In this document: one piece after another, positions 34,217-64,000 of the stretch
How positions within the stretch are numbered: the stretch's first letter is position 1
Layout of the letters: every line of letters begins with the position of its first letter
Assembly (NCBI GenBank): GCA_963704885.1
Contig: CAVPIB010000004.1
Coordinates: 896,001-960,000, forward strand
From: an uncultured Actinomycetes bacterium
GTDB lineage: Bacteria > Actinomycetota > UBA4738 > HRBIN12
Length of the DNA: 64,000 nt
Reading direction: 5' to 3'
Made by a program: the position numbers and the translations under genes
The notes under the pieces: generated by a model
Told to the model about the DNA's origin: nothing
The model's database searches: none
The model's input: only the letters and a program-made list of their open reading frames with translations

Positions 34217-35680
34217 ATGGCGGATGTCGACGGAGCCAGACGCGCGCTGGAAGCCGCGCTCGGCCCGGCCGAGGTTCTGGCCGACCCGCTGGCGCTCAAG
34301 CTCTACGCACGTGACGCATCCATGGTCGAAGGCGGCTGCGCGTTGGTCGCGTTCCCTAGATCGACCGACGACATCGTCGCGTGCATGCGGATCGCGACTC
34401 AGCACGGACTGGCCGTCGTACCGCGCGGGAGCGGTACGGGATTGGCCGGCGGGGCCACGCCCATAGGTGACTCGCTGGTCGTGGTCACCTCGAAGATGAA
34501 CACGATCTTGGAGATCCGGACCCAAGATCGCCTGGCCTGGGTCGAGCCGGGGGTGTTCAACCTCGATCTGTCCGACGCGCTCCGGCCGCTCGGATGGACG
34601 TATGCGCCCGATCCCTCGTCTCAGCAGACGTCGTCGATCGGCGGCAACGTGAGCACCAACGCCGGCGGCCCTCACTGCCTGGCCTACGGAGTCACGTCGG
34701 CGCACGTACTCGCGCTCGACGTGGTGCTCCCAGATGGTTCGGTGGAACGGTTCGGCAGCGAGGGACCCGAGGCGCCCGGCTACGACCTCCGCGGGGTCGT
34801 CATCGGCTCGGAGGGAACGCTCGGGATGGTGGCGCGGGTATGCGTTCGTCTCACCCCGCTGCCGCCTGCGGTCCGCACCATGCTTCTGGATTTCGGCAGC
34901 GTCGAGGACTGCGCCGCGACGGTCTCGGACATCATCGCGCGCGGCGTCGTCCCCGCGGCGCTCGAGATGATGGACAACGGCATCGTGGTCGCGGCAGAGA
35001 ACTTCGCGCACGCCGGCTACCCGACCGACGCTGCGGCCATCCTGATCGTTGAGGTCGACGGCCTGCAGTCGGCGGTCGAGTCGCAGACCCGGGAGGTCGA
35101 GGCCGCGGCCGAAACGAACAACGTCCGCACCATCCGGGTGGCGGCCGACGACGCAGAGCGCGCACTCCTTTGGAAGGGACGCAAGTCGGCGTTCGGTGCG
35201 GTTGCACAGATCGCTCCGCACTACCACCTGCACGACTGCGTGGTGCCCAGGACGAAGCTCGTCGAGGTCCTGGCCGGCGTCTACGCGATCGCGAAGCACC
35301 ACGACCTGATAGTCACGAACGTGTTCCACGCCGGCGACGGCAACCTCCACCCGCTGCTCTCGTTCGACCGCAGCGTTCCGGGGACGCTCGAGCGAGTGCT
35401 CCAGGCGAGCGAGGAGATCGTCCGTCTGTGTATCGACGCGGGCGGCGCGCTCAGCGGCGAGCACGGGATCGGCCTGGAGAAACGCGACTTCATGCCGCTG
35501 GTGTTCACGGCGGACGACCTGGCGGCCCAGGCCTGCGTCCGCAACGCGTTCGACCCCGAGCGGCGGATGAACCCCGAGAAGGTGCTGCCCGAAGGCGCCC
35601 GATGCGGCGACTTCGCCATGGCGCACGGGAGCGACGCCGCCGAGGCGGCCGCGAGCCTGCCGGAGGGTTCGTGGATCTGA
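34217..35680 (+). CDS. glcD: Glycolate/D-lactate oxidase FAD subunit
   Basis: PRGSGTGLAGG, APDPSS, GSEGTLG, HAGDGNLHP, GEHGIG. Confidence 0.9.
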   Translation: MADVDGARRALEAALGPAEVLADPLALKLYARDASMVEGGCALVAFPRSTDDIVACMRIATQHGLAVVPRGSGTGLAGGATPIGDSLVVVTSKMNTILEIRTQDRLAWVEPGVFNLDLSDALRPLGWTYAPDPSSQQTSSIGGNVSTNAGGPHCLAYGVTSAHVLALDVVLPDGSVERFGSEGPEAPGYDLRGVVIGSEGTLGMVARVCVRLTPLPPAVRTMLLDFGSVEDCAATVSDIIARGVVPAALEMMDNGIVVAAENFAHAGYPTDAAAILIVEVDGLQSAVESQTREVEAAAETNNVRTIRVAADDAERALLWKGRKSAFGAVAQIAPHYHLHDCVVPRTKLVEVLAGVYAIAKHHDLIVTNVFHAGDGNLHPLLSFDRSVPGTLERVLQASEEIVRLCIDAGGALSGEHGIGLEKRDFMPLVFTADDLAAQACVRNAFDPERRMNPEKVLPEGARCGDFAMAHGSDAAEAAASLPEGSWI

Positions 35681-36705
35681 TCCACCCGCACGCGAAGCAC
35701 GACGTGGTCGAGGTGCTTCGCGACGCCAGCGCACACGGCACGCGCGTCCTCACCGTCGGCGGACGAACCCACATGGACCGGGGCAACCCACGTGAGGTCG
35801 ACGCCGAGCTGTGGACCACCATGCTCGACGAGGTCGCATCCTACGAGCCGGCCGAGATGCTGGCGGCTGTCGAGGCCGGGATGCGCGTCGGCGACCTCCA
35901 GGCCATGCTCGCCGAGGGCGGACAGGAGTGGCCGGTGGACGCGCCGCACGATGCCACCGTGGGCGGGGTGATCGCAGCCGGCGTCTCGTCGTTCCGCCGG
36001 CTGCGCGTCGGCCACGTGCGCGACACGGTGGTCGAGCTGGAGTTGGTGACCGGCGACGGCCGGCTGATCAGGAGCGGCGCGCGGACCGTCAAGAACGTGA
36101 CGGGCTATGACATCCACCGGCTGGCGACCGGCTCCCTCGGCACGCTCGGCGTGATCGTGCAGGCGGCGTTGAAGCTCCGGCCGCTCCCCCAGGTCCGTCG
36201 CCGCATCACGGCCGTCGGCAACGGTCTGGAGCTCGGCTCGCGCTTCCTGGAGCGCATCCCCCTACCGGCCGCGATTCTCGCCGAACCGGAGCGAGCAAGC
36301 GTGTGGCTCGAAGGTTGGATCGAGGAGGTGGAGGAACAGACCGCCGCCGCGCGCACCGCGTCGACGGACCTCTTGATCGACGACGAGCCGCAGCCGTTCG
36401 ACCCGTCGGCGATCCAGGCCCAGGTCGTGGTGGAGGCGGCGGTCGCTCCCTCACGGATCGCGCATGTGGTGTCGGGGCGCGACGGCTGGACCGCACTACT
36501 TGGGATCGGGATCGTCTGGTTCGGCCTGTCGACCGAAAGCGGTGAGCTGGCTCGGATCCGCGACAGTGTCGCCGAGGTTGGAGGGACGGCGCCGGTGATC
36601 AAGGGTCCCGGGGGGCTGGGCCCGACCCACCTCCCCGCGCCGGAGGTTCACGGGCGATTGAAGGATGCCTTCGATCCCGCCGGGATCCTCTCTCCCCCCG
36701 GCTGA
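35671..36705 (+). CDS. glcE: Glycolate oxidase FAD-binding subunit
   Basis: ATVGGVIA, KNVTGYD, GSLGTLG, KDAFDP; overlaps the glcD stop. Confidence 0.85.
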   Translation: MDLIHPHAKHDVVEVLRDASAHGTRVLTVGGRTHMDRGNPREVDAELWTTMLDEVASYEPAEMLAAVEAGMRVGDLQAMLAEGGQEWPVDAPHDATVGGVIAAGVSSFRRLRVGHVRDTVVELELVTGDGRLIRSGARTVKNVTGYDIHRLATGSLGTLGVIVQAALKLRPLPQVRRRITAVGNGLELGSRFLERIPLPAAILAEPERASVWLEGWIEEVEEQTAAARTASTDLLIDDEPQPFDPSAIQAQVVVEAAVAPSRIAHVVSGRDGWTALLGIGIVWFGLSTESGELARIRDSVAEVGGTAPVIKGPGGLGPTHLPAPEVHGRLKDAFDPAGILSPPG

Positions 36706-36711
36706 CCCGAA

Positions 36712-36732
36712 GGTCCCGTGCGCCGCGGGACC
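36712..36732 (+). terminator. Hairpin after glcE
   Basis: GGTCCCG...CGGGACC stem. Confidence 0.45.
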
Positions 36733-36773
36733 CTCGACCCGACTCACCTCGCCTCACACCTCCTAACTTCGCT

Positions 36774-36798
36774 CTAACGGACTGGATAGGTCCGTTAG
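36774..36798. promoter_or_regulatory. Perfect 9-7-9 inverted repeat upstream of nosZ (candidate Rrf2 operator)
   Basis: CTAACGGAC-TGGATAG-GTCCGTTAG immediately before the AGGAAGGAG RBS. Confidence 0.65.
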
Positions 36799-36816
36799 TG
36801 AGGAAGGAGACCTGCG

Positions 36817-38901
36817 ATGGGTTCGGACGGCGGGCCAGACAAGACCGGTACACCCAACGGCGAGCAGGCAACCGGGTCGGGCGTATCACGCCGACCGGTG
36901 AAGCATCGCGGACCGGTGGTGAGCAGGCGCGCGGCGCTCGGGATGATGGCGGGCGGCGCGGCGGCCGGCGTCGTAGGCGCACGGGTCGGATTCGGAGCAT
37001 CGAGCGGAGGGGATCTCTCGCAGATCGCCTCGGATCGAGGACTCGACGGCGACCAGGCGGCCGCAGCACTGAAGACGTTCGTCCCCGGGGGAAGCTTCGA
37101 CGAGTACTTCTTGATGGCGTCGGGCGGCCACTCAGGCCAGATGCTCGTGATCGGCGTGCCGTCGATGCGCCTGCTGAAGGTGATCCCGGTGTTCACGCCG
37201 GAACCGTGGTCGGGCTACGGCTACGGGACGGAACAGTCGATGGCGGTCCTGGCTGGGGGCTCCGATCCCGCTAAGTCGAACCCTCTCGCCTGGGGCGACA
37301 CGCACCACCCGGCACTGTCCGAGACCGAGGGTGACTACGACGGTCGGTTCCTCTACATCAACGACCGGGCCAACGGCCGGATCGGCATGATCGATCTGCG
37401 CGACTTCAAGACGAAGGAGATCTTCGACATCCCGAACCTCCAGACGTCCCACGGCGGGTGCTTCGTCACGCCCAACAGCGAGTACGTCCACATATCCTCG
37501 ATGACACCATGCCCTGCGACCGAGAGCGGCTACGCGCCTCTGTCTCGATACAAGGAGGACTTCCGGGGGTTCTCGACGTGGCTCGCGCTCGACCAGGAGA
37601 CCGGACGGTTCGTGAAGGAGAAGACCTTCCAGATCGAGTTGCCTCCGTACACGCAGGACCTTGCGGATGCGGGAAAGCTCACCAGCTACGGGTTCGGCTT
37701 CATCAACTCCTACAACACCGAGATGGCCACCGGCGGCAACCTGCACGATCCGTCGATGTCCTTAGAGGCCTCAGCGACCAAGAACGACTACGACTTCATG
37801 CACATCATCGACTGGCAGAAGGCCGAGGCGTTCTTCCAGGCCGGATCCGGGATCAAGAAGCTGAACGGCATGTCCGTCATCCCGCTCGACGCGGCGGTAG
37901 GCGAAGGGATCCTGCACTTCGCGCCGGAACCGCGGAACCCACACGGCGTGGACGTGAGCCCCACGGGTGACTACATCTGCGTGAGTGGGAAGCTCGACCC
38001 CAACGGCAACGTCTACTCGATGGAGCGGATCAAGGACGCGATCGCGAACCAGGACTATCAGGGCACCGATGAGTTCGGCGTTCCGATCCTGACGCTCGAG
38101 TCGGTACTCGAGGCGCAGGTCGAGCTGGGCGCCGGCCCACTGCACACACAGTTCGACGACAAGGGCCACGCGTATACGTCGCTCTTCTTGGATTCGGCGG
38201 TGGCGAAGTGGACGCTCGGCCCCAAGGCGGGGCATACCGACGACGCGTTCCAGTTGGTCCAGAAGCTGCCGGTCCACTACAACATCGGTCACCTCTGCAC
38301 GGCCGAGGGCGACACGGTGAACCCGGACGGCAAGTACCTGATCGCGCTCAACAAGTGGTCGATCGATCGCTTCCCGCCGGTCGGCACGCTCCACCCGCAG
38401 AACTTCCAGCTGGTGGACATCGGAGAAGAACCCATGAAGCTCCTATCCGACATGCCGATCGGCCTGGGCGAGCCCCACTACGTCCAGATGATCCACAGGG
38501 ACAAGTTGAAGAACGTCCTGACCGCGTACGAGCCGGCGACCGAACCCAGCGACTGGACGGTTTCCCCGTTCGCCACGGTGGCTGGCGAGGAGCGGATCGA
38601 ACGCGACGGCGACACGCTCCACGTCTACATGACCGCGCAGCGCTCTCACTACACGCCCGACATCGTGGAGGCGAACCTGGGCGATACGCTGCAGTTGCAC
38701 ATCACCAACATCGAGCAGACGCCGGACGCGACCCACGGCTTCGCGATCCCCTCGTACAACATCGAGGCCAGCCTCGACCCTGGCGAGGTCGTGAACATCG
38801 CGGTTCCGCTCGACCGGGCGGGTACGTTCGCCATGTACTGCTCGGAGTTCTGCTCGGCCCTACACCTGGAGATGCAGGGCTGGCTCCAGGTTGCCCCGTG
38901 A
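36817..38901 (+). CDS. nosZ: Nitrous-oxide reductase, clade II-like, with Tat signal
   Basis: SRRAALG twin-Arg; SGGHSGQ..GVPSMRLLKVIPVF; CuZ His motifs DTHH, SHG, PHG, PLH, IGH, EPH; CuA motifs THGF and CSEFCSALHLEM. Confidence 0.96.
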   Translation: MGSDGGPDKTGTPNGEQATGSGVSRRPVKHRGPVVSRRAALGMMAGGAAAGVVGARVGFGASSGGDLSQIASDRGLDGDQAAAALKTFVPGGSFDEYFLMASGGHSGQMLVIGVPSMRLLKVIPVFTPEPWSGYGYGTEQSMAVLAGGSDPAKSNPLAWGDTHHPALSETEGDYDGRFLYINDRANGRIGMIDLRDFKTKEIFDIPNLQTSHGGCFVTPNSEYVHISSMTPCPATESGYAPLSRYKEDFRGFSTWLALDQETGRFVKEKTFQIELPPYTQDLADAGKLTSYGFGFINSYNTEMATGGNLHDPSMSLEASATKNDYDFMHIIDWQKAEAFFQAGSGIKKLNGMSVIPLDAAVGEGILHFAPEPRNPHGVDVSPTGDYICVSGKLDPNGNVYSMERIKDAIANQDYQGTDEFGVPILTLESVLEAQVELGAGPLHTQFDDKGHAYTSLFLDSAVAKWTLGPKAGHTDDAFQLVQKLPVHYNIGHLCTAEGDTVNPDGKYLIALNKWSIDRFPPVGTLHPQNFQLVDIGEEPMKLLSDMPIGLGEPHYVQMIHRDKLKNVLTAYEPATEPSDWTVSPFATVAGEERIERDGDTLHVYMTAQRSHYTPDIVEANLGDTLQLHITNIEQTPDATHGFAIPSYNIEASLDPGEVVNIAVPLDRAGTFAMYCSEFCSALHLEMQGWLQVAP

Positions 38902-38927
38902 TCGGATCGAACAGGAAGGAGCAAGAT

Positions 38928-39368
38928 ATGCGCAGGTTCAGTCTGCTGGCGGCCGCGGCGCTCGCGACCGCCATGGTATTGGCCGCATGTGGCGGCGGTG
39001 ACGATGGAAGTGGTGACGGCGGTGGCGACGGAGGTGGCGACAACGGGGGCGGCGGCTCGACGGCCCTCGCGGTCACGGCCCCGAGCGGCGCTGCGAACGA
39101 CGGGTTCGCGGAGACGTCGCTCAGCGTTGCCGCCGACACTCCGTTCACCATCAACTTCACCAACGAAGACGAAGGCATCCTGCACAACGTGCAGATCTTC
39201 GAGGGAACGGATACGAGCGCAACGGCCGTGTGGACACCCGAGGGGAACGCCATGATCACCGGACCGGACGAAGCGCTCTACGAGATCCCCGCCCTGCCGG
39301 CGGGCACCTACACGTTCAACTGCTTCTCGCACCCGACCACCATGGTCGGGACGTTGACGGTGGGCTAG
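38928..39368 (+). CDS. Cupredoxin (type 1 blue copper) lipoprotein
   Basis: Lipobox LAAC, Gly/Asp linker, HNV and CFSHPTTM ligands; GGAAGGAG RBS. Confidence 0.88.
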   Translation: MRRFSLLAAAALATAMVLAACGGGDDGSGDGGGDGGGDNGGGGSTALAVTAPSGAANDGFAETSLSVAADTPFTINFTNEDEGILHNVQIFEGTDTSATAVWTPEGNAMITGPDEALYEIPALPAGTYTFNCFSHPTTMVGTLTVG

Positions 39369-39381
39369 GGATCTGGAAACG

Positions 39382-40098
39382 ATGAGGATGGCGGCCGACC
39401 CGATCTCCCAGACCGAGCGAGCGAACGTGAACTCAACGCCAGGCCTCGGAGACACCCCTCCCGCCCCCGCGACCCCCTCGCGGACGCCGGGCATGCGGAT
39501 AGGGATCGGGCTCGCGGCCGCCATCCTCGTCATCCTGGCGTGGCGCCTCCCGATCTGGGAGGCAAGGCTCTCGGCGCCGCAGTACCCACTGGGGCTCTCG
39601 CTCAGCGCGGGCGCCCAAGGTGTTAGCGGAGACATCGAACAGATCAACGTTCTGAACCACTACGTGGGGATGGCGGCGTTCGATCCCTCGGACGCGCCTG
39701 AGACGGCTCTTTGGGTGTGGGCGATCCTGTTCGCGCTCGGGGCGGTCGCGGTGGCGACGGCGTTGGACGTTCGTCACCCGCTCGCTCGGCTGGCGCGGAT
39801 CGGACTGTGGCTCGTCCCTCTAGGCGCACTCGCCGACGTGCAGTACCGGCTCTACCAGTACGGGCACAGCGTCCAGCCCGACGCCACGATCCGATTGGAG
39901 CCGTTCACCCCTCTCGTTATCGGACCCACCCGTGTGCTGAACTTCACGACCTGGGCGTTCCCAGGCGGAGCGATCTGGTGCCTGCTCGGCGCAGCGTTCC
40001 TCATGAGCTTCGGGGCTCGCTTGATCTTGTGGGGCCGCGAAAGGTGGGCGACCCGGCCCATCTACGTGGACGATGACGTGGAGATCGAAGCGTCGTGA
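39382..40098 (+). CDS. nosB: NosB-like membrane protein
   Basis: W..LSAPQYPLGL, INVLNHYVGM, LYQYGH, PLVIG..NFT motifs typical of clade II NosB. Confidence 0.85.
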   Translation: MRMAADPISQTERANVNSTPGLGDTPPAPATPSRTPGMRIGIGLAAAILVILAWRLPIWEARLSAPQYPLGLSLSAGAQGVSGDIEQINVLNHYVGMAAFDPSDAPETALWVWAILFALGAVAVATALDVRHPLARLARIGLWLVPLGALADVQYRLYQYGHSVQPDATIRLEPFTPLVIGPTRVLNFTTWAFPGGAIWCLLGAAFLMSFGARLILWGRERWATRPIYVDDDVEIEAS

Positions 40099-41609
40099 GA
40101 CGTCGCGCGGTATTCGCCGTTCTGGCCCTTCTGGTCGTGGCCGCGGCCTCGGCGTACATGCTTGGCTGGTTAAGCAGCCCAACCGACCAGGTGGCTGCTC
40201 CGGTCCGGTCGGTCACCATGCCGGCGGCGCACCTGCAGTCCATGATCGATGCCGCACCCGACGGCTCCACGCTCGAGGTCCCGGCCGCGACCTACGCTGG
40301 ACGCCTGCGCGTCGATCATCCACTCACGCTGGTGGCACAGGGGAAGGTCGTGGTCGACGCGGGCTGGCTCGGCTCGGTCCTACGGATCACAGCTCCCGAT
40401 GTCACGGTTGATGGCTTCACCCTCCGTCGCTCCGGCATCGGCCCGGTCGGAGCGCCATCCGGGATCCTCGTTGAGAACGCGGATCGAGCTTTGATCCGCG
40501 ACGTCAGGATCGAGCACAGCTACATGGGGATCACTGTTCGTCGCTCAAGGAGCGTGTCCATCGAGGGCGTAACGATCGTCGGCGAGGGACTGATCATAGG
40601 GGAGCTCCACGCCGTGAACGCACCGTCCGACGCGCACGCCGGCCACGACATGGCTGATCCGGAGAGGAGCGTGGCATCTCCCGGCGGGCAGATCCGCGGT
40701 GACGGGATCTGGCTCTGGAACACCATCGACGCCGAAGTCAGGAACTCGACCATCACGGGCGTCCGCGATGGGATCTACGTCTCGTACGGGATTCGTTCTC
40801 GCCTGATCGGGAACACGATCGCCGACAGCCGTTACGCGGTTCACGACATGTACGCCGAGGATCTCCTGCTCCACGAGAACACGCTGACTGGCAACCTCTC
40901 GGGCCTGGTCCTGATGTACGGCGGGCCTGTAGACGTGATGGGCAACACGATCACGGAGTCCGGCAGTCCCTCCACAGGCTTCGGCATCCTGGTGAAAGAC
41001 GCCGGCGGCGTCAACGTTCGGCGGAACATCATCGCCGACAACCGCGAGGGGCTTCATATCGACGACGCAGGCCGAACGGGAGGAGAGCCCGTGCAGGTGG
41101 CGGACAACACGATCGCCATGAACCAGGTGGGCGTCCTGATCTTCCCGTCGGCCGACTCCGGGTTCACCGGCAACGGGTTCATCGAGAACTCCACCCAGGT
41201 CGCGCTCGGCGGCAGCGGGACCACGCAAGCAGATTGGACGGTGGGCGGCGTCGGCAACTACTGGAGCGACTACAGCGGATTCGATGGCGGCGGGGACGGA
41301 GTCGGCGACGTCCCCTACTCGGCCAGCGGGCGGGTCAGCAGGCTCCTGGCGGAGGAACCGCTCTTGGCCGCGCTCACCTCCGGCCCCGCCTTCAGGCTCC
41401 TGAACTCACTCGAGGATCGCTGGTCGGATGCCGTGCCCGTCGTGAACGATGACGCCCCGATCCTGACCTCGCGCGGTCCCGCGATGGGGGGTGGCCCCGG
41501 AGGCTCGCCAACCCTCCTGTGGCTGGCTGGAGGCGCCTTGATCACGGCGAGCGCATGGGCGCTGCTGCGCTCGCGAAGGCCGCGGAGGGGGGTGACCGCC
41601 CATGCCTGA
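40095..41609 (+). CDS. nosD: NosD maturation protein with C-terminal TM anchor
   Basis: RGDGIWLWN, RDGIY, RYAVHDMY, GNYWSDYSGFD..GDGVGDVPY. Confidence 0.92.
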   Translation: MRRRAVFAVLALLVVAAASAYMLGWLSSPTDQVAAPVRSVTMPAAHLQSMIDAAPDGSTLEVPAATYAGRLRVDHPLTLVAQGKVVVDAGWLGSVLRITAPDVTVDGFTLRRSGIGPVGAPSGILVENADRALIRDVRIEHSYMGITVRRSRSVSIEGVTIVGEGLIIGELHAVNAPSDAHAGHDMADPERSVASPGGQIRGDGIWLWNTIDAEVRNSTITGVRDGIYVSYGIRSRLIGNTIADSRYAVHDMYAEDLLLHENTLTGNLSGLVLMYGGPVDVMGNTITESGSPSTGFGILVKDAGGVNVRRNIIADNREGLHIDDAGRTGGEPVQVADNTIAMNQVGVLIFPSADSGFTGNGFIENSTQVALGGSGTTQADWTVGGVGNYWSDYSGFDGGGDGVGDVPYSASGRVSRLLAEEPLLAALTSGPAFRLLNSLEDRWSDAVPVVNDDAPILTSRGPAMGGGPGGSPTLLWLAGGALITASAWALLRSRRPRRGVTAHA

Positions 41610-42309
41610 ATCCTCCGACCGGTTCCTGGAGGTCGAGGACCTCACGAAGACGTACCGCGGCGGGTGGGGGCTGCACGACGTGTCGTTCTCGTTGGCCGGG
41701 GGGCGGATCGCCGCGCTCGACGGGCCGAACGGCAGCGGGAAGTCCACGATGCTCCGATGCCTGGCGGGACTGGTCCGGCACCACGGCCGGATCTCGCTGC
41801 GCGGTGAGCCCTTGAACGAGCGGCCCGACCTGCGCGCCGAGATCGGCTTCCTGCCTCAGTCCGTCTCCTTCCCCGAGCAAGCCACGATCGGCGAGGTGAT
41901 GGATCTGTTCGCCCGGCTCCGCGGAACGACGATCGACGACCATCCCTTCCCAGACGGGTTCGTGTCGGAAGACGATCGGCTGATGGGCGAGCTGTCCGGC
42001 GGTCAGCGGCACCGGGTGGCCGTCGCGGTGGCCTTGCTCGGACGCCCCTCGCTCCTGCTACTGGATGAGCCGGTCGCCGGCCTGGACGAGGCCGCACGGG
42101 GAACGTTCTGGGCAGTTCTACGCGACTTGGCCGATCGCGACGGTGTCACGTCGATCGTCTCGAGCCCCTTCCCCGCGGAGCTCCGCGGCGTGGCCGACTG
42201 CGCGCTCCACATGGTCGACGGGGACCTTCGCACGCTCGAGGACCCGATCCAGCCGACCCCTCTGCGGTCCGTTCACGGTCCTGAAGACCAGCTGGAGGCG
42301 AACGCATGA
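41602..42309 (+). CDS. nosF: NosF ABC ATPase
   Basis: GPNGSGKS, LSGGQ, LLLDEP; positioned between nosD and nosY. Confidence 0.85.
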   Translation: MPESSDRFLEVEDLTKTYRGGWGLHDVSFSLAGGRIAALDGPNGSGKSTMLRCLAGLVRHHGRISLRGEPLNERPDLRAEIGFLPQSVSFPEQATIGEVMDLFARLRGTTIDDHPFPDGFVSEDDRLMGELSGGQRHRVAVAVALLGRPSLLLLDEPVAGLDEAARGTFWAVLRDLADRDGVTSIVSSPFPAELRGVADCALHMVDGDLRTLEDPIQPTPLRSVHGPEDQLEANA

Positions 42310-43139
42310 GCACCACGAACGCCACCACCCTGATCGCGTCGTGGGAGTACCGCACGGCGGTGCGCTCGCGGTGGGTCCTGACCATGGCGGCCGTCTTCGG
42401 CGGGCTGTGCGTGATCGTGACGCTCCTGGCCTTCCGCACGGTACGCGAGCTGGGCCTCACCGGGATCGGCCCCGCGTCGGCCACGCTCGTGAACCTCGGA
42501 GTGCTCCTCCCCTCCCTCATGGGACTACTCCTGGGAGCGGGGTCGCTGGCCGGGCAACGCGAGCACGGCCTGCTGGCGTTGGTCTGCGCACAGCCACTCC
42601 GGCGTTCGCAGGTGGCGACGGGAGCGGTGCTCGGCCTCAGCGCCTCGCTGCTCACGACCCTGGGCGTGGGGTTCGGCCTGGCGCTGCTGATCCTGGCCGG
42701 CGTGGCGCGGGGGACAGACCTTCCGGCGCTGCTCGCTCTGGCAGGAACGACCGCGGGCGTCGGTGCCGCGAGCGTGGCCATCGGTGTCGCGATCTCGACG
42801 ATGGTGGCCAGCCGGGTCCAGGGGATCTCGATCGCGGTTGGGCTGTGGATCCTCATGGCCCTCGGCGTGGATCTGGCGCTCGCCGCGCTGGCCCCCAGCG
42901 TCCATCTGGGACCGCTCGGCCTGCTGATAGTCGTGATGCTGAACCCGCTCGAGACGGGCCGGATCCTGGCTCTCCTGGCTACTAACCTCAAGGGAACCGC
43001 GCTCGGCCCGTTCGGCGCGTACATGGTGTCGACGTTCGGCACCGCCGGCGCCGTCGGTCTGCTGGTTGCCGATCTGGTGGCGTGGATCGCGCTGCCAACC
43101 CTTCTTGCCAGGCGCGCGCTGACCCGCGCAGACCTGTGA
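42306..43139 (+). CDS. nosY: NosY ABC permease
   Basis: RSRW, QPLRRSQ, LNP..RIL, LGPFG; about 6-7 TM segments. Confidence 0.87.
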   Translation: MSTTNATTLIASWEYRTAVRSRWVLTMAAVFGGLCVIVTLLAFRTVRELGLTGIGPASATLVNLGVLLPSLMGLLLGAGSLAGQREHGLLALVCAQPLRRSQVATGAVLGLSASLLTTLGVGFGLALLILAGVARGTDLPALLALAGTTAGVGAASVAIGVAISTMVASRVQGISIAVGLWILMALGVDLALAALAPSVHLGPLGLLIVVMLNPLETGRILALLATNLKGTALGPFGAYMVSTFGTAGAVGLLVADLVAWIALPTLLARRALTRADL

Positions 43140-43152
43140 AGGCGAGGTGTGG

Positions 43153-43584
43153 ATGAGGTTCACCAGACAGAGCCGCTACGCGATCGAAGCCCTGCGCGTG
43201 CTCGCGACCCACGAGCCCGACGAGATCGTGGACGCGCGCGAACTCGCCACGGAGGCGGGACTGCCGAGTCCGTACCTGTCGAAGATCCTCCAGCAGCTCG
43301 CGGCGGGCGGAGTCCTCAAAGCCGTGCGAGGGCGCGGGTATCGGCTTGCGCAACCCGCCGAGGAGATCCGGATCGACGAGGTGATCCGCACGGTCGAAGG
43401 AGGCGACGCCATCTGGGACGCCTGCATCTTCTGGCGCGAGGAGTGCAACACGGAGGACCCGTGCCCGCTCCACTTCCGCTGGCGGGAGCTGAAACCCGGC
43501 CTCCAGCTGGCCATGAACACCCTCACGCTGGCCGATGTGCGTGAGCGCTGGGCGCCGATGCCCAACAGCGTCTCAACGGCCTGA
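43153..43584 (+). CDS. Rrf2 family regulator with three Cys
   Basis: YLSKILQQL..RGRGYRLA; CIFWREECNTEDPCPLH. Confidence 0.92.
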   Translation: MRFTRQSRYAIEALRVLATHEPDEIVDARELATEAGLPSPYLSKILQQLAAGGVLKAVRGRGYRLAQPAEEIRIDEVIRTVEGGDAIWDACIFWREECNTEDPCPLHFRWRELKPGLQLAMNTLTLADVRERWAPMPNSVSTA

Positions 43585-43595
43585 GATCAGCGGCT

Positions 43596-43616
43596 ACTAG
43601 TCTGATTCAGACTAGT
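43596..43616. repeat. Palindrome ACTAGTCTG-ATT-CAGACTAGT (copy 2 of 2)
   Basis: Same arms as 9389-9409; overlaps the aminotransferase stop codon. Confidence 0.8.
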
Positions 43617-44767
43617 GCGCGGAGCCTTTCGCCGGCAGCCTCCAACGTCTCGAGCTTCTTGCAGAACGTGAACCGGAGCAGATGCGCTCCCTGCTTGGGC
43701 TCGGAGAAGAACGACGACCCCGGGACGGTCCCCACTCCGATCCGTTCGACCAGATCGTGCGCAGCGGCCACGTCGTCCGGGTAGTCCAGATGCGAGATGT
43801 CGGCCATGACGTAATAGGCGCCCTTGGGCGGCGACGCCTGGAACCCCGTCTCCGCCAGGATGCTCATCAGGAGCGAGCGACGCTCGTCGTACTCGGCCAC
43901 GACACGCTCGTAGTAGCTGTCGGGGAGGTTGAGCGCCGTGATCCCAGCCACTTGCAGCGGCGCGGGTGCCGCCACGGTGAGGAAGTCGTGCACCGGGCGC
44001 AACGCATCGGTCAGCTCACATGCCGCGATCGTCCAACCCACGCGCCACCCGGTCACCGAGTACGACTTGGAGAGCGCGCTGATGGTGACGGTCCGATCCT
44101 CCATCCCGGGGATCGTTGCGATAGGCACGTGCTCCACGCCGTCGTAGGTCAGGTGCTCGTATATCTCGTCTGTGATAGCGATGACGTCGTGGGCTACGCA
44201 GAGCTCCGCGATCAAAGAGAGCTCCTCGCGCGTGAACACCTTCCCGGTCGGGTTGTTCGGCGAGTTCAAGACGATGGCCCGGACGCGACCGGAGAACGCC
44301 GCACGCAGCTCGGCCTCATCGAACGTCCAGTCGGGGGGATGCAGCGTGACCAGACGCGGCACCGCTCCAGCTATCAAGGCGTCGGGTCCGTAGTTCTCGT
44401 AGAAGGGCTCGAAGACCACGATCTCGTCGCCCGGATCCACCAGGCCCAGCATCGCCGCGATCATGGCCTCGGTGGACCCGCAGGTGACGCAGATCTCCGT
44501 CTCAGGGTCGACACGCATGCCGTATAGGCGGTCGTACTGCGCGGCGATCGCCTCGCGGAACTCCGGCACGCCCCAGGTCACCGGGTATTGGTTGTGATCG
44601 TCGGCGATCGCCTGGCGTGCGGCCTCCTTCACCTCGTCCGGCGCCGGGAAGTCCGGGTATCCCTGGCCCAGGTTGACGGCGTCGTGCAGGTCGGCCAGGC
44701 GCGTCATCTCGCGTATCACCGACTCGGTGAACGACGACGACTTCGCGGAGCGACGGGTTCTCGACAC
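43607..44767 (-). CDS. PLP-dependent class I/II aminotransferase (YbdL/kynurenine type)
   Basis: NLGQGYPDF, NSPNNPTG, DEIYE, SKSYSVTGWRVG. Confidence 0.93.
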   Translation of the reverse strand: MSRTRRSAKSSSFTESVIREMTRLADLHDAVNLGQGYPDFPAPDEVKEAARQAIADDHNQYPVTWGVPEFREAIAAQYDRLYGMRVDPETEICVTCGSTEAMIAAMLGLVDPGDEIVVFEPFYENYGPDALIAGAVPRLVTLHPPDWTFDEAELRAAFSGRVRAIVLNSPNNPTGKVFTREELSLIAELCVAHDVIAITDEIYEHLTYDGVEHVPIATIPGMEDRTVTISALSKSYSVTGWRVGWTIAACELTDALRPVHDFLTVAAPAPLQVAGITALNLPDSYYERVVAEYDERRSLLMSILAETGFQASPPKGAYYVMADISHLDYPDDVAAAHDLVERIGVGTVPGSSFFSEPKQGAHLLRFTFCKKLETLEAAGERLRALV

Positions 44768-60365: not shown

Positions 60366-62291
60366 TCATGCGGCCGGACTGAACCCTTCGATGATCAACG
60401 TGTGATCATCGAGCCAGCTCGGATCAGCGCCCTCGCCCACCATCCGCTGCCGACCGAGACCGACGTCGACGAACTTGATGGGGTGCATGTAGAGCGTCTG
60501 GAATGCGACCTTCGTGCCGTCGGGTGACCACATCGGCCACAGAGCTTCCGTGTCGATCTGACTCATCGAGCAGCACGAATGGCCAACCGGGCGGGCGTGG
60601 GTCCCATCGGCGTCGACGAGCCAGATCGTCCCCGACGTCATCTCCGTCAGGTCGGATCCATCGAAGTCGGTCCTGCGGTAGGCGATCGTCGTCCCGTCCG
60701 GGGAATACGTTCCAAAGGCTCCGGTCAACAGGAAGGAACTCGGGCCCCCTGTCGACGGCACGGTGCGCAGGGTGAGTCGGTGTTCTCGGATCGCCGTGTA
60801 AAGGATGGTTTGCCCGTCGGCGCTGAAGTTGGGCGCCCAGATCTCGCGCCGTTCCTGGATGACGCGCGTGATGTCGCCGGTGGCGGTGTCGAGGAGGAAG
60901 GCCGAGGGACCCTCGCTGAACACGATCGTCGTCCCATCGGGCGACCAATCGGGGGCAGACACACCCCCTTGCGGTGCGAACCAACGGATGTGCGATCCGT
61001 CGACGTTCGCCACGAAGATCGCCTCCCCATCGTCGAACGCGAGCTTCGCGCCGTCGGGCGACACCCGGAAGTGGGCGACCCCGGCGATCGAGCGGATGCT
61101 CTTGGGCAGGCCCGTCGCCTTCCCGGTTCGCAGATCGACGAAGGAAACGTCTGCCAGGCCGAGGGCTTGCGGTTCCGGCAACGCCGCCATGAAGTAGGAG
61201 ACGATCAGGGTGCCCTCGTCGAGCCAGCTGGGCTCCTGCCCCGTCCCGGCGACCCACCGGTCGCCGGAAACCGCGTCGTAGACCCTCACGGAGCCATTCG
61301 GATAGCCATGGAACACACCGCCGCCGCACACGCAGGCGAGATGGGATCCGTCGGGAGACCACACCAGTCGTGTGTGCTCCCAGGTGAGGGCCGACGAGTA
61401 GTACCCGCCGCCGGCGGCCACCAGCCGCCTCCGCCGCGACCCGTCGGCGTCGGCGAGCCGGATCGCCGGCGTCCACCCCCACCAGCTGGACGCCGACTCC
61501 CTGGGTCGGGTCCGGTGATAGGCGATCGTGGTCCCATCCGGTGAGAAGGCGCCGTACGCGGCGTTCTCGATCAACAGCTCCGGCCTGCCACCGGCGGTCG
61601 GGACCGTCCACAGCCCTAGCCATCGACCATGCCCCCCCGTGGCGGTGAATAGGATGCGCCGGCCGTCGGGGCTGAAACTGGCGGTCGCCGCCCCGGCTTC
61701 CCGGAACTCCCGGCCAGACGAGAACGTGATCTGCCGTCGGGCTTGTGATGCCACATCCACGACGGACAGGTTCGTCCGGGCTGCCCTCGGGTTGTTCCAC
61801 TCGAAGACGAGCTCGGAGCCGTCCGGCGACCAACCGGGGTCGGACGCCGACCCCGGTCCCTGGGTCACCTGCCGCAATCCCGAGCCATCGATGCTCGACA
61901 CGAAGATCTGCCCCTCGGACGTGAACGCGAGCTCGGCACCGTCCGGTGAGACCTGGAAGTTCTGAGCACCGGCGACCGCGCGGAGCGCGCGCGGCAGCGG
62001 CCGGGTCCCGCCGTCGCGGACGTCGAGCAAGACCACGTTCTCGAGGTGTTGTACAGCGGGTGCGGCGGAAGAGGCCGAAGGAGCCGCCACCTCGGTGGGA
62101 GCGGCGGGCGACGCTTCCGTTCGATCGGATCCTTCGTCGCCCACCGACAGCACGCGGGCCAACCCGATCGCCAGCAGGACGGCGACACCGACCAACGCCA
62201 CGATGGATGCGGCCCAGAGGGCCCGGGTCTTGATCGGCCTGCGCGGCTCGCGATCGTCACGGCGCACGTGGGGCTCGAGATCCTGTTTCAT
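60366..62291 (-). CDS. Membrane-anchored TolB/PD40 double beta-propeller protein
   Basis: N-terminal TM; many (W/F)SPDG repeats; two homologous halves. Confidence 0.82.
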   Translation of the reverse strand: MKQDLEPHVRRDDREPRRPIKTRALWAASIVALVGVAVLLAIGLARVLSVGDEGSDRTEASPAAPTEVAAPSASSAAPAVQHLENVVLLDVRDGGTRPLPRALRAVAGAQNFQVSPDGAELAFTSEGQIFVSSIDGSGLRQVTQGPGSASDPGWSPDGSELVFEWNNPRAARTNLSVVDVASQARRQITFSSGREFREAGAATASFSPDGRRILFTATGGHGRWLGLWTVPTAGGRPELLIENAAYGAFSPDGTTIAYHRTRPRESASSWWGWTPAIRLADADGSRRRRLVAAGGGYYSSALTWEHTRLVWSPDGSHLACVCGGGVFHGYPNGSVRVYDAVSGDRWVAGTGQEPSWLDEGTLIVSYFMAALPEPQALGLADVSFVDLRTGKATGLPKSIRSIAGVAHFRVSPDGAKLAFDDGEAIFVANVDGSHIRWFAPQGGVSAPDWSPDGTTIVFSEGPSAFLLDTATGDITRVIQERREIWAPNFSADGQTILYTAIREHRLTLRTVPSTGGPSSFLLTGAFGTYSPDGTTIAYRRTDFDGSDLTEMTSGTIWLVDADGTHARPVGHSCCSMSQIDTEALWPMWSPDGTKVAFQTLYMHPIKFVDVGLGRQRMVGEGADPSWLDDHTLIIEGFSPAA

Positions 62292-62412
62292 GGCCTGGCC
62301 TCCTCGTTTCGTTCACGATCCTATCTCGAGGCCGAGGATGCTCCTGCGCCCCCAAGAGCCGCCTGAGCCGTGCGCAAGAACCACGCAAGCCAGGAGGCGG
62401 AGCCGGAAGGCG

Positions 62413-64000
62413 CTATGGGCAGGGATCGACGTGCAGGTACTGGCGGCACTCTTCTGACGTGAGCGACCGTGTGACGTTCGTTCGAGCGATCGCGAGCAGC
62501 TCGTCGATGTCGAGGGTCCAGACGCGCACACCGTCACAGTCCTGCGCCGCGAGGAGCGCGCCGTCGGGACTGAACGCGAGGCCGCCCCCGTAGCAGAACT
62601 CGTGCCCTAGATCCGGCGCCGGCGCAGGCAGCGTGAGACGCAGCTCCCGCGTGTCGGTGTCGTAGAGACGCACCTCCTGCCTCCCGATGACCGCCAGGGT
62701 CGACCCGTCGGGACTGAACGAGACGCGTCCCCTCGCTTCCTCGGGAAACGACCCCAAGAGCTGCGCGGATGCCACGTCCCAGATCCGGATGGGTCCATCC
62801 TCATCCTGCGTGACGATCCTTCCCCCGCGAGGATCGATCGCCACGCTGGTCGCGTGGGTGGGGAGAGTGGCGATCTCGGACCCGTCAGCACCGTCGAGCA
62901 CGACCACGACCCGATCCGGGTCTGCGTCGGCGCCGGCGATGGCGATGGTCCCGTCCGGACCAACCTCCAGGACTCCGATCGACAGCGGCTGCGCCCTCCG
63001 CCAGACCTCGCGACCGTCGAGTCCGACCAACGCGATGGAAGCCTGCGTGGGCGAGACGACGAGGTGGGCGCCATCGGGCGCCCAGGATGCGAACGCTGTC
63101 TCGATCGGAGGTCGGCTGACGCTCGTCCCTTCGACCAGGGCGAGGACCCCACCGCGACGCTGCTGGATGACCGATCCGTCGACCGGGTTCACCTCGAACG
63201 GGGCGATCGGCAACGTGAGGGAGAGTCCGAACGGGGTCGGCGCGGGCGCCCCCAGATCCCACGCGAGGAGGCCCGCCCCGGCCTTCCCATCGTCGGCGAC
63301 GATGATGAGTCGGCTCCCCGACGGCGTGAACTCGACCTGGCCCGACCAGATGGTCGGCAGCGACAGACCGGCCCGCTCCCCGTCGCCCACGGGGCGAACG
63401 TCCCAGATCCGGACGGCATCCGAGGCGGTCACGATCCGCTGACCGTCGGCGGTGAAAGCGACGTCCGTGACGGCGCCGGCGCCGGCGCCGCCGGCCGCGA
63501 GGAACGCCAGTGTCGATCGGAACTCGGTGGAACCGACCTCCCAGACCTTGGCGCTTCCGTCGATCGAGCCCGTGACCAGTCGCTCGCCGTCGGGGCTCCA
63601 GTCGGAGGTGATGACGGTGGCGTCGTGCTGCCAGGCGGTGTACAAGAGCTCCCCGGTCGTCGAATCCCAGACGTAGGCACTGCCCGATAGGAGACGACCA
63701 TCGGGACTCCATGACAGGGGGCCGTTGATCCCCCTGAAGGGCGGCGCTCTGAAAGCGACACCGCGACCACGGCCGATGGTGGGAACGATGCGGCCGCCAT
63801 CATCGCCGTTCCTCTCCACCATGACGATGGCGATGCGCGACCCGTCGGGACTGAGTGCCACGTGGTCGTAGTGGTTCAGGCCATCGAACGTCCTGACCAC
63901 TCGCAACGTCCTGACCACTCGCCCGGTATCGGCGCGAGCCACAACGACTCGGCCGGCCGACGGCCAGCGCGCCGCCACCAGCGAACCCTGCACGTCGAGT
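62413..64000 (-). CDS. WD40 repeat protein, C-terminal part (5' end beyond window)
   Basis: FSPDG repeats, GSIDGSAKVW; C-terminal TRSLTSEECRQYL as seen in STAND-WD40 proteins. Confidence 0.85.
   Translation of the reverse strand, partial: LDVQGSLVAARWPSAGRVVVARADTGRVVRTLRVVRTFDGLNHYDHVALSPDGSRIAIVMVERNGDDGGRIVPTIGRGRGVAFRAPPFRGINGPLSWSPDGRLLSGSAYVWDSTTGELLYTAWQHDATVITSDWSPDGERLVTGSIDGSAKVWEVGSTEFRSTLAFLAAGGAGAGAVTDVAFTADGQRIVTASDAVRIWDVRPVGDGERAGLSLPTIWSGQVEFTPSGSRLIIVADDGKAGAGLLAWDLGAPAPTPFGLSLTLPIAPFEVNPVDGSVIQQRRGGVLALVEGTSVSRPPIETAFASWAPDGAHLVVSPTQASIALVGLDGREVWRRAQPLSIGVLEVGPDGTIAIAGADADPDRVVVVLDGADGSEIATLPTHATSVAIDPRGGRIVTQDEDGPIRIWDVASAQLLGSFPEEARGRVSFSPDGSTLAVIGRQEVRLYDTDTRELRLTLPAPAPDLGHEFCYGGGLAFSPDGALLAAQDCDGVRVWTLDIDELLAIARTNVTRSLTSEECRQYLHVDPCP
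63887..63922. repeat. 18-nt tandem duplication (AACGTCCTGACCACTCGC x2)
   Basis: Encodes RVVRTL-RVVRTF in the WD40 gene. Confidence 0.75.

Follow-up and report, generated by a model that had tools for sequence, protein, structure and literature searches.

Nitrous-oxide reductase (NosZ) is, to our knowledge, the only known biological sink of nitrous oxide (N2O). The maturation proteins NosD, NosF and NosY are established as the builders of its CuZ copper centre in this family, and among the common nos genes, nosB is the only one left for which we know of no function. Here, a module of seven genes in the order nosZ-cupredoxin gene-nosB-nosD-nosF-nosY-Rrf2 regulator gene was analyzed, which lies in a 64-kb stretch of DNA (the window) from an uncultured Actinomycetes bacterium. 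The module is a real, probably functional and under-described variant of a known system, and it was compared with the closest described systems as these appear in the available portions of the cited texts.

Wolinella succinogenes possesses the cluster nosZ-B-D-G-C1-C2-H-F-Y-L (Hein et al. 2017, as cited in later papers including PMC9697520). As in that cluster, a clade II NosZ is combined with nosB directly after the nosZ region and with nosD, nosF and nosY, and the module may plausibly require a Rieske/cytochrome bc complex, as Wolinella does. Unlike in W. succinogenes, NosGH, NosC1/C2 and NosL are missing, NosZ has no cytochrome c domain and a twin-arginine instead of a Sec-type N-terminus, a cupredoxin gene is placed between nosZ and nosB, and the Rrf2 gene comes last. 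The Bacillota systems, described from thermospore metagenome-assembled genomes (MAGs) and from Schinkia acidoalkalinis CFF1, share with the module the single membrane, clade II nosZ, a nosB gene for a four-helix protein next to nosDYF, and the frequent lack of nosL; in strain CFF1, three of the four nos clusters are without nosL, and NosZ_3 is still made. However, the Bacillota carry nosC, encoding a cytochrome c, before nosZ and have Sec-type signals, whereas the module has a lipoprotein cupredoxin gene after nosZ, no cytochrome c gene and a twin-arginine (RR) motif in NosZ.

In the haloarchaeon Haloferax mediterranei, NosZ and NirK are substrates of twin-arginine translocation (Tat) and reside on the outside of a single membrane, an arrangement resembling that of the module, and halocyanins, small blue-copper proteins encoded near haloarchaeal reductases, have been proposed as electron donors (PMC8301774). 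The haloarchaeal NosZ belongs to another lineage, however, the haloarchaeal enzymes bear a lipobox, and the pairing of nosB with a cupredoxin gene was not found in the available portions of that account (PMC8301774). NosB-NosL fusions have been published for the Bacteroidota Dyadobacter and Flavobacterium and contain the same NosB domain with LNHY(I/V)GM and YGH; they may be taken as a published hint that ties NosB to copper handling (PMC9697520). Unlike these fusions, NosB of the module stands alone in a genome without NosL, and the common fusion partner in its subclade is NosD (30/55 loci). The Chloroflexota loci are the next relatives of the window NosZ. There, too, clade II membership by structure and sequence and the presence of nosB have already been published, along with a Tat-type signal on a clade II NosZ, which the window NosZ probably shares; the available portions of that account mention neither a cupredoxin gene nor Actinomycetota (PMC11409646).

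Clade II NosZ with nosB and nosDFY, Bacillota clusters without nosL, NosB-NosL fusions, Tat-type clade II NosZ, haloarchaeal blue-copper donors and the rarity of nosZ in Actinomycetota are already known. New are the precise insertion site of the module, the slot beside nosB that holds either a cupredoxin gene or nosL, the frequent fusion of NosB with NosD, a conserved NosB surface that should face outward, the conserved twin-arginine motif of NosZ, and candidate operators linking nosZ and nirK. The first-pass annotation of the window, made by a model from the letters, had called the system minimal. This applies to the cluster, which is free of nosL and cytochrome c genes, but not as a novelty, since nosL-less clade II clusters of Bacillota and clade II systems with a Tat signal and nosB of Chloroflexota preceded it. 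The nosZ-cupredoxin-nosB layout was not found in the literature searched, an absence that is provisional since key subscription papers and reviews lay outside the search. In the top-ranked papers, nosB never appeared along with nosZ and a blue-copper protein. For nosZ together with Acidimicrobiia, with Actinobacteria and nosB, or with Actinomycetota, survey papers were the only matches.

Gene arrangement of the module and copper ligands of NosZ

The seven genes have the following positions in the window:

36817-38901, + strand: nosZ, clade II nitrous-oxide reductase, 694 amino acids (aa)
38928-39368, + strand: cupredoxin gene, lipoprotein type-1 cupredoxin, 146 aa
39382-40098, + strand: nosB, four-helix membrane protein, 238 aa
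40095-41609, + strand: nosD, beta-helix maturation protein, 504 aa (PF05048, 126 bits)
41602-42309, + strand: nosF, ABC ATPase, 235 aa (PF00005, 93 bits)
42306-43139, + strand: nosY, ABC-2 permease, 277 aa (PF12679, 52 bits)
43147-43584, + strand: Rrf2-family regulator, 145 aa (PF02082, 97 bits; TIGR00738, 94 bits)

As claimed by the first-pass annotation, the gene calls gave seven co-directional, tightly packed genes, with spacers of 26, 13, −4, −8, −4 and 7 nucleotides (nt) in gene order. Shine-Dalgarno sequences precede nosZ and the cupredoxin gene. Position 36774, at which the annotation had let the cluster begin, is no start codon; it lies 43 nt 5' of the nosZ ATG on a conserved palindrome.

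NosZ was assigned to clade II by its score of 746.1 bits on the clade II model TIGR04246 (cut-off 625), as the first-pass annotation had implied, whereas TIGR04244, the model for Tat/clade I, gave 396 bits (cut-off 625); on the clade III model NF052460, 205 bits were reached (cut-off 700). All seven CuZ histidines (H163, H164, H212, H376, H443, H492 and H554) and the CuA ligands (H640, C675, C679, H683 and M686) are present and align to the equivalent residues in the solved NosZ structure 5i5i. They are invariant in 15 homologues except for H443, which is at least 90% conserved. The seven histidines and the CuA motif read from the letters were thus confirmed by alignment.

NosD, NosF and NosY are encoded together, so that the maturation set is complete, and nosF and nosY keep their positions in relatives. 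Hydrophobic segments at the N- and C-terminus of NosD are candidate anchors. Together with the lipobox of the cupredoxin, they bear out the proposal that the extracytoplasmic partners are tethered to the membrane.

The cluster had been described as lacking NosL, NosR, NosGH and cytochrome c, and domain scans and the search for CxxCH upheld this. None of the seven module proteins contains a CxxCH motif, no FMN-bind or NosR-type domain (nosR/nosX) was detected in the 12 open reading frames (ORFs) scanned in and around the cluster, and NosGH and cytochrome c genes were absent from the cluster. NosL (PF05573) was found neither in the cluster nor in the whole genome nor in 41 relatives; the same model does detect NosL in the related loci L093-L104. 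The host genome comprises 3.0 Mb in 20 contigs with a completeness of 97.15%, and all genome-wide negatives given here hold for this assembly. The remaining genes of the window are housekeeping genes, and nir, nor and cytochrome c genes do not occur elsewhere in it, as the first-pass annotation had stated for nir and nor.

Since the family scores, the full set of metal ligands and the tight packing establish the identity and intactness of the module, it is likely, as part of the best overall explanation, that it represents an intact and self-contained clade II nitrous-oxide reductase system. Seven genes without a cytochrome c or NosL would make it a compact system for the minimal needs of N2O reduction outside a periplasm. 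When sequencing runs were searched for the module, no RNA run was listed, and the DNA runs all shared less than 0.2 of the sampled words.

Residues 36-41 of NosZ form the twin-arginine motif SRRAAL, which is followed by a Gly/Ala-rich, weakly hydrophobic stretch. The pattern [ST]RR was found by motif search in 62 of 120 NosZ homologues and in 54 of the 60 closest; the remaining six of these are gene calls that start past the motif. More distant Acidimicrobiia-labelled homologues have a plain hydrophobic N-terminus and no RR motif. TatC is encoded in the genome, and the N-terminus of the cupredoxin likewise begins with MRRF. Judging from the motif search, NosZ is probably exported via Tat. A Sec-type signal is usual in clade II without being a defining trait, and published exceptions exist among the Chloroflexota.

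Distribution of the nosZ-cupredoxin-nosB layout

In order to determine how widely the gene order is spread, a NosZ alignment scan was performed with one genome per species, and the best 80 of 361 loci were analyzed. In 55 of these, the cluster is complete as far as nosY; each of the 55 encodes NosB, and 34 carry an Rrf2 gene near nosZ. Both nosZ and nosB are present in 66 loci, in nearly all of which they are separated by a gap of about 400-650 nt. The ORF in this gap was identified as a cupredoxin gene in 48 loci, by Pfam in 43 and by phmmer in another five, and as nosL in eight; the remaining ten gap ORFs gave no match, a single ORF having been picked per locus, possibly in the wrong frame. 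The synteny search suggested with the first-pass annotation thus showed that the layout recurs in 48/66 loci. An initial candidate reading, in which the cupredoxin is a clade-specific addition (17/55 loci by phmmer with the window's protein), was rejected on the basis of the Pfam result for the gap ORFs; the lower tally is an artefact of the divergence of the cupredoxin sequences.

Cupredoxin-type loci occur in the Actinomycetota Ilumatobacteraceae, Acidimicrobiaceae, Nitriliruptoraceae, Dermatophilaceae, Aeromicrobium and the isolate Cryobacterium sandaracinum TMT2-16, and also in Chloroflexota and Limnocylindria, so that the label 'actinobacterial-type' chosen at first sight had to be given up. 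NosL-type loci belong to Dehalococcoidia, 'Candidatus Fervidifonticultor' and 'Candidatus Kapaibacterium'. According to these gene orders, nosZ-cupredoxin-nosB is the norm for a large NosZ subclade in mostly single-membrane phyla. The host itself was confirmed as actinobacterial, as had been supposed: the closest named NosZ proteins come from 'Actinomycetota bacterium' MAGs. That nosZ is uncommon in Actinomycetota, also stated at the outset, agrees with a 2025 survey whose available portions class 1% of Actinomycetota as 'terminators' (PMC12569097).

In the cultured C. sandaracinum TMT2-16 (L080, 1922-7806), nosZ-cupredoxin-nosB is followed by genes for NrfC-like (4Fe-4S) and NrfD-like proteins, and no nosD, nosF or nosY was found within 9 kb of this nosZ locus. 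In an Aeromicrobium MAG (L070), too, only nosZ, the cupredoxin gene and nosB were seen.

The layout is common in MAGs of Actinomycetota and Chloroflexota from soil and sediment, and such genomes are easily mis-scored, with the JGI name 'copper chaperone NosL' for NosB and the NCBI term 'Sec-dependent' for NosZ as sources of error. If the module works, a phylum usually regarded as 'N2O-producing' holds unrecognised consumers.

The cupredoxin encoded between nosZ and nosB

The cupredoxin starts with MRRFSLL and has a lipobox, LAAC (residues 18-21), followed by a Gly/Asp-rich linker. Its predicted type-1 copper ligands are H86, C132, H135 and M139 (His...Cys-x2-His-x3-Met). Domain scores were slightly above the respective cut-offs (28.7 bits for PF13473, cut-off 27; 22.0 bits for PF00127, cut-off 21.2), and weak similarity to auracyanins and plastocyanins was observed. 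In the ORF list, its reading frame is merged with a longer spurious ORF.

Two paralogues are encoded in the genome. The C-terminal domain of the NirK homologue shares 49% identity with the nos cupredoxin (E 4e-23), and the second paralogue, with two cupredoxin domains, sits in the caa3 oxidase operon. Because the ligand set is complete and the paralogues are found with NirK and in the caa3 operon, the protein is read as an electron carrier, which would donate electrons to CuA of NosZ.

Alternatively, the cupredoxin may be a copper chaperone that replaces NosL and delivers copper to NosB/NosD. Its position between nosZ and nosB is the very one taken by NosL in eight of the 66 related loci, the two were never seen together in this slot, and the genome lacks detectable NosL as well as matches to the copper chaperones PCuAC and Sco, which is consistent with such a function. 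Yet the complete His-Cys-His-Met set is that of type-1 electron transfer, the matches are to the plastocyanin/azurin families, and the paralogues are placed where electron carriers are expected, i.e., fused to NirK and within an oxidase operon. The chaperone function was therefore considered very unlikely, and the assignment as electron carrier was preferred.

NosB as a putative membrane partner of copper insertion

NosB matched no Pfam or NCBIfam model. Its motifs LNHYVGM (residues 91-97) and YGH (160-162) correspond to both conserved NosB stretches, LNHYIGM and YGHN, which are quoted from van Spanning 2011 in PMC9697520. A full HMMER scan yielded 781 homologues. Among the 57 scanned that are longer than 300 residues, a NosD domain is present in 32 and a NosL domain in 18; seven have neither, and a fused redox domain was not found in any of these 57. 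NosB and NosD share a single open frame in 30 of the 55 loci that are complete through nosY. Homology of the window's NosB to the NosB domains fused to NosL or NosD was demonstrated. The JGI name 'copper chaperone NosL' for some NosB proteins that stand alone can be traced to the NosB-NosL fusions. A NosB-NosD fusion is not mentioned in the available portions of the relevant literature. For the clusters of a protein atlas, otherwise unnamed and without Pfam match, the label 'putative cytochrome C' was dropped since NosB contains no CxxCH.

In 74 stand-alone sequences, N92, H93, Y94, G96 and M97 are 89-99% conserved, the helices are variable, and the residues conserved to at least 80%, including H93, M97, E107 and H162, are all located in loops 1-2 and 3-4. 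The AlphaFold model (pLDDT 88.8, pTM 0.80) has helices at residues 36-55, 107-127, 133-162 and 196-223, three of which are backed by hydropathy, and the two loops form a small beta-sheet. Since the NosD domain must be extracellular in the fusions and NosD has its own N-terminal helix, the conserved loops of NosB should face outward. A Foldseek search returned only four-helix proteins of the claudin/TARP/DUOXA1 type (TM scores of 0.3-0.5), and the structural alignment by VIA-align was middling, with Z up to 9.2, so that the modelled likeness to claudins appears to be one of topology only. The fold searches brought up no clear copper-binding or transporter fold. The predicted NosD-NosB complex (score 0.01, mark 0.32) speaks neither for nor against binding.

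Taken from conservation and fusion partners, NosB is a putative membrane partner of the copper-insertion machinery. It could instead help to carry electrons to NosZ from the quinol pool or the bc complex, acting like NosR and having no part in copper-centre assembly. The authors who showed NosB to be essential in Wolinella suggested an electron-transport role, as quoted in PMC9697520; the module, having neither NosGH nor NosR, leaves room for a membrane link via NosB, and in the Cryobacterium locus the NrfC-like and NrfD-like genes directly follow nosB. However, the helices contain no conserved Cys or His, no haem or Fe-S (iron-sulfur) motif was found in NosB, the conserved residues are confined to the outer loops, and the fusions are to NosD (32) or NosL (18 of 57) and never to a redox domain. 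A place of NosB in the electron path was hence judged rather unlikely as compared to one in copper insertion. The cupredoxin-or-NosL slot and the frequent fusion to NosD give rise to a concrete, testable hypothesis for the function of NosB.

Insertion site and occurrence in relatives

The module is flanked by two genes that mark the boundaries of the insertion:

35680..36705, + strand: glcE-like FAD (flavin adenine dinucleotide)-binding subunit, left boundary (NF008439, 141.6 bits)
43607..44767, − strand: class I/II aminotransferase, right boundary (PF00155, 212 bits)

In all five nosZ-less genus-mates compared, glcD, glcE, the aminotransferase gene on the opposite strand and glcF follow each other without the module. 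Four of them have about 26-35 nt between the ends of glcE and the aminotransferase gene, the fifth about 700 nt. The seven genes exactly fill this gap in the host and in genus-mate G003, and the inserted block measures 6.9 kb. Overall, the module is present in 2 of the 13 genomes of the genus. Among 41 related genomes, nosZ scored above the cut-off in five and was seen as a contig-end fragment in a sixth; the negatives include the three unpublished genomes G008, G029 and G037. The order nosZ-cupredoxin-nosB-nosD-nosF-nosY was found in all four relatives whose orthologous locus was retrieved, which argues against a chance arrangement.

From this comparison, it appears likely, within the same overall explanation, that the module was inserted recently as one block between glcE and the aminotransferase gene. 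Since its G+C content does not deviate from that of the surroundings, the donor was probably related to the host. A second type of clade II nosZ (L004, G015:C5:1-1999; TIGR04246, 763 bits), with only 37.5% identity to that of the window, is present in another genome from the GTDB family of the host, so that nosZ entered the family at least twice.

Two observations concern the left boundary. The longest glcE-like ORF of the window (35170-36705) adds an Arg/Pro-rich N-terminus of 170 residues that has no counterpart in relatives. The alignments of the relatives' glcE begin at about 35680, and the start of glcE is probably near this position, overlapping the end of glcD (34217-35680).

Denitrification and respiratory genes of the host genome

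The genome was searched for partners of NosZ. A NirK homologue was found:

G000:C1:281152-282579 (= L013:1054-2484), − strand: NirK homologue, 476 aa, with N-terminal membrane anchor and C-terminal cupredoxin

With 196.9 bits, it fell short of the TIGR02376 cut-off (296.3), although the match spans positions 16-311 of the 326 in the model. The motifs HSIDFH, YHCG...H...GM, FHVIG and THSF are visible in its sequence, and we take them to be the type-1/type-2 copper ligands and the catalytic Asp/His. The C-terminal 100 residues form a cupredoxin domain. Such NirK-cupredoxin fusions were also observed in 10 of the 41 relatives, mostly in genomes without nosZ.

NirS gave no match in the genome, and NarG only matches of 34 and 28 bits, to other molybdoenzymes. 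Neither NorB nor a second haem-copper oxidase was found, both PF00115 matches in the genome belonging to a single caa3-type locus. Adjoining the caa3 operon are genes of a Rieske/cytochrome b/cytochrome c complex and of the system II pathway that matures c-type cytochromes. The genome thus appears to encode nirK and nosZ without a detected nor. Since a NirK homologue is present, the host is probably not a pure non-denitrifier; its description as a possible non-denitrifying N2O consumer in the first-pass annotation was not sustained, the putative copper and Asp/His motifs of NirK being intact. The genome check for nosL, nir, nor and cytochromes c that it had called for came out in two ways: nosL and nor were not detected, whereas a nirK homologue and c-type cytochromes are encoded elsewhere in the genome.

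The caa3 oxidase operon encodes a CoxII-cytochrome c fusion, CoxI, CoxIII and CtaG and ends with the two-domain cupredoxin of 358 aa (L108:15703-16776; G000:C1 ~712.7-713.8 kb). Blue-copper carriers seem to be general in the respiratory chain of the host. Subunit I of the sole haem-copper oxidase is found in two overlapping frames (L108:12042-13175 and L108:13157-13879; G000:C1 ~709-711 kb), one covering PF00115 positions 1-313 and the other 321-436; this could be due to a frameshift, an assembly error or a truly split gene.

These gene contents bear on whether the module serves respiration at all. It may be carried for purposes other than energy conservation, as a detoxification system or electron sink, or may be an inactive recent acquisition. 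The insertion is recent and restricted to 2/13 genomes of the genus, the chain from NirK to NosZ is incomplete as no nitric oxide (NO) reductase was found, and the cluster has no gene for a quinol dehydrogenase. On the other hand, none of the seven genes is disrupted, their catalytic residues are conserved, and so are promoter elements upstream of nosZ. In addition, many species with NosZ identities of 57-96% have kept the layout, which speaks for selection. A non-respiratory or inactive module was accordingly regarded as decidedly unlikely; judged by its genes, the module is very probably functional.

Candidate operators and the Rrf2-family regulator

The Rrf2-family protein encoded by the last gene of the module has cysteines C93, C100 and C106, followed by H109, a pattern that is presumably typical of Fe-S-binding, IscR/NsrR-like members. 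It reached no equivalog cut-off (IscR 57 bits, NsrR 36 bits). In a tblastn search, it was the only Rrf2 gene detected in the genome. Two palindromes lie upstream of nosZ:

36709..36735: palindrome P1, GAAGGTCCCG-N-CGGGACC, about 95 nt 5' of the nosZ ATG, possibly a regulator-binding site or a hairpin
36775..36797: palindrome P2, TAACGGAC-N7-GTCCGTTA, 11-1-11 geometry, just 5' of the ribosome-binding site, candidate Rrf2 operator

For the alignment of nosZ upstream regions, five of 20 close loci (L027, L032, L033, L034 and L039) were left out because the RR-codon anchor was not found. The left arm of P1, GGTCC, is present in all 16 aligned regions and the right arm, GGACC, in 15; P2 is recognisable by eye in about 14. 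A TAnnnT box is located between the palindromes, and the flanks are otherwise unrelated.

Only three strict copies of P2 exist in the 3.0-Mb genome: one precedes nosZ, one lies about 75 nt ahead of nirK, and one is next to a gene of the CRP/FNR family. From this distribution, P2 is likely the operator of the module's Rrf2 protein. As such, P2 would place nirK of this genome under the control of Rrf2 as well. The third strict copy lies at the junction of the CRP/FNR-family gene (L107:4632-5327, − strand) and a gene for a protein with a cyclic nucleotide monophosphate (cNMP)-binding domain (L107:5180-5749, + strand), which are arranged head to head (G000:C1 ~369.6-370.7 kb); a P1-type match is 1.7 kb off.

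P1 was initially considered as a site of the nos-linked Rrf2 alone. This was rejected, since P1-like sites precede nirK in genus-mates without the module. P1 probably belongs to another shared regulator, e.g., the CRP/FNR-family protein encoded beside the third P2, or is a structural element.

An Rrf2 gene whose product is about 30% identical adjoins nirK in four of ten relatives' loci. Between nirK and the divergent Rrf2 gene of several relatives (L115-L122), the palindrome AACGTnTAG...CTAnACGTT with 11-1-11 geometry was observed, by eye together with P1-like sites at the nirK promoters. It looks like a second, distinct type of Rrf2 operator.

Proposed working of the module

The following working is proposed. 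First, NosZ would cross the single membrane to its outer face, probably as a Tat substrate, as the twin-arginine motif suggests. Second, electrons would pass from menaquinol via the Rieske/cytochrome bc complex to the lipid-anchored cupredoxin and on to CuA of NosZ. Third, NosD, NosF and NosY would build CuZ with NosB as a membrane partner on the outer face; in the absence of NosL, NosB may join in the hand-over of copper. Fourth, the Fe-S-type Rrf2 protein would control the module, and probably nirK too, via the conserved palindromes. As a result, the host would couple NirK and NosZ without a recognisable NO reductase.

As a whole, this explanation, i.e., block insertion, Tat export, the cupredoxin as donor, NosB in assembly and control by Rrf2, is considered the probable one. 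A broader proposal joins all parts: a minimal all-copper support of N2O reduction in single-membrane Actinomycetota/Chloroflexota, in which the cupredoxin replaces every dedicated cytochrome c and NosGH, a claudin-like NosB with an outer His/Met site, often fused to NosD, supplies or positions copper for NosDFY so that NosL becomes dispensable, and the module's Rrf2 protein as an Fe-S sensor unites nirK and nosZ in a single regulon following the horizontal insertion. This proposal is tentative and, taken in full, doubtful.

Several points weigh against the explanation. The evidence is at the level of genes, and the electron path in particular is read from gene content only; the cytochrome c subunit of the bc complex may directly serve as an alternative donor to NosZ. 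About 3% of the genome is missing and 16,000 bases lay outside the searches, so that nor and nosL may have escaped detection. NosD scored 293.9 bits on TIGR04247, narrowly below the cut-off of 300. NCBIfam calls this NosZ family 'Sec-dependent', the Tat assignment being motif-based. The match of NosB to a claudin/TARP-like fold (Z about 9) is uninformative on copper, and the available portions of published work label NosB as of 'unknown function' with electron transport as the alternative (PMC9697520). Finally, P1-like sites were recognised by eye before nirK in nosZ-less genus-mates that do not possess this Rrf2 gene.

Other genes in the window

Apart from the module and its flanks, two adjacent genes for large beta-propeller proteins with WD40 and PD40 repeats were observed at 62416-63999 and 60369-62312 (−) of the window.

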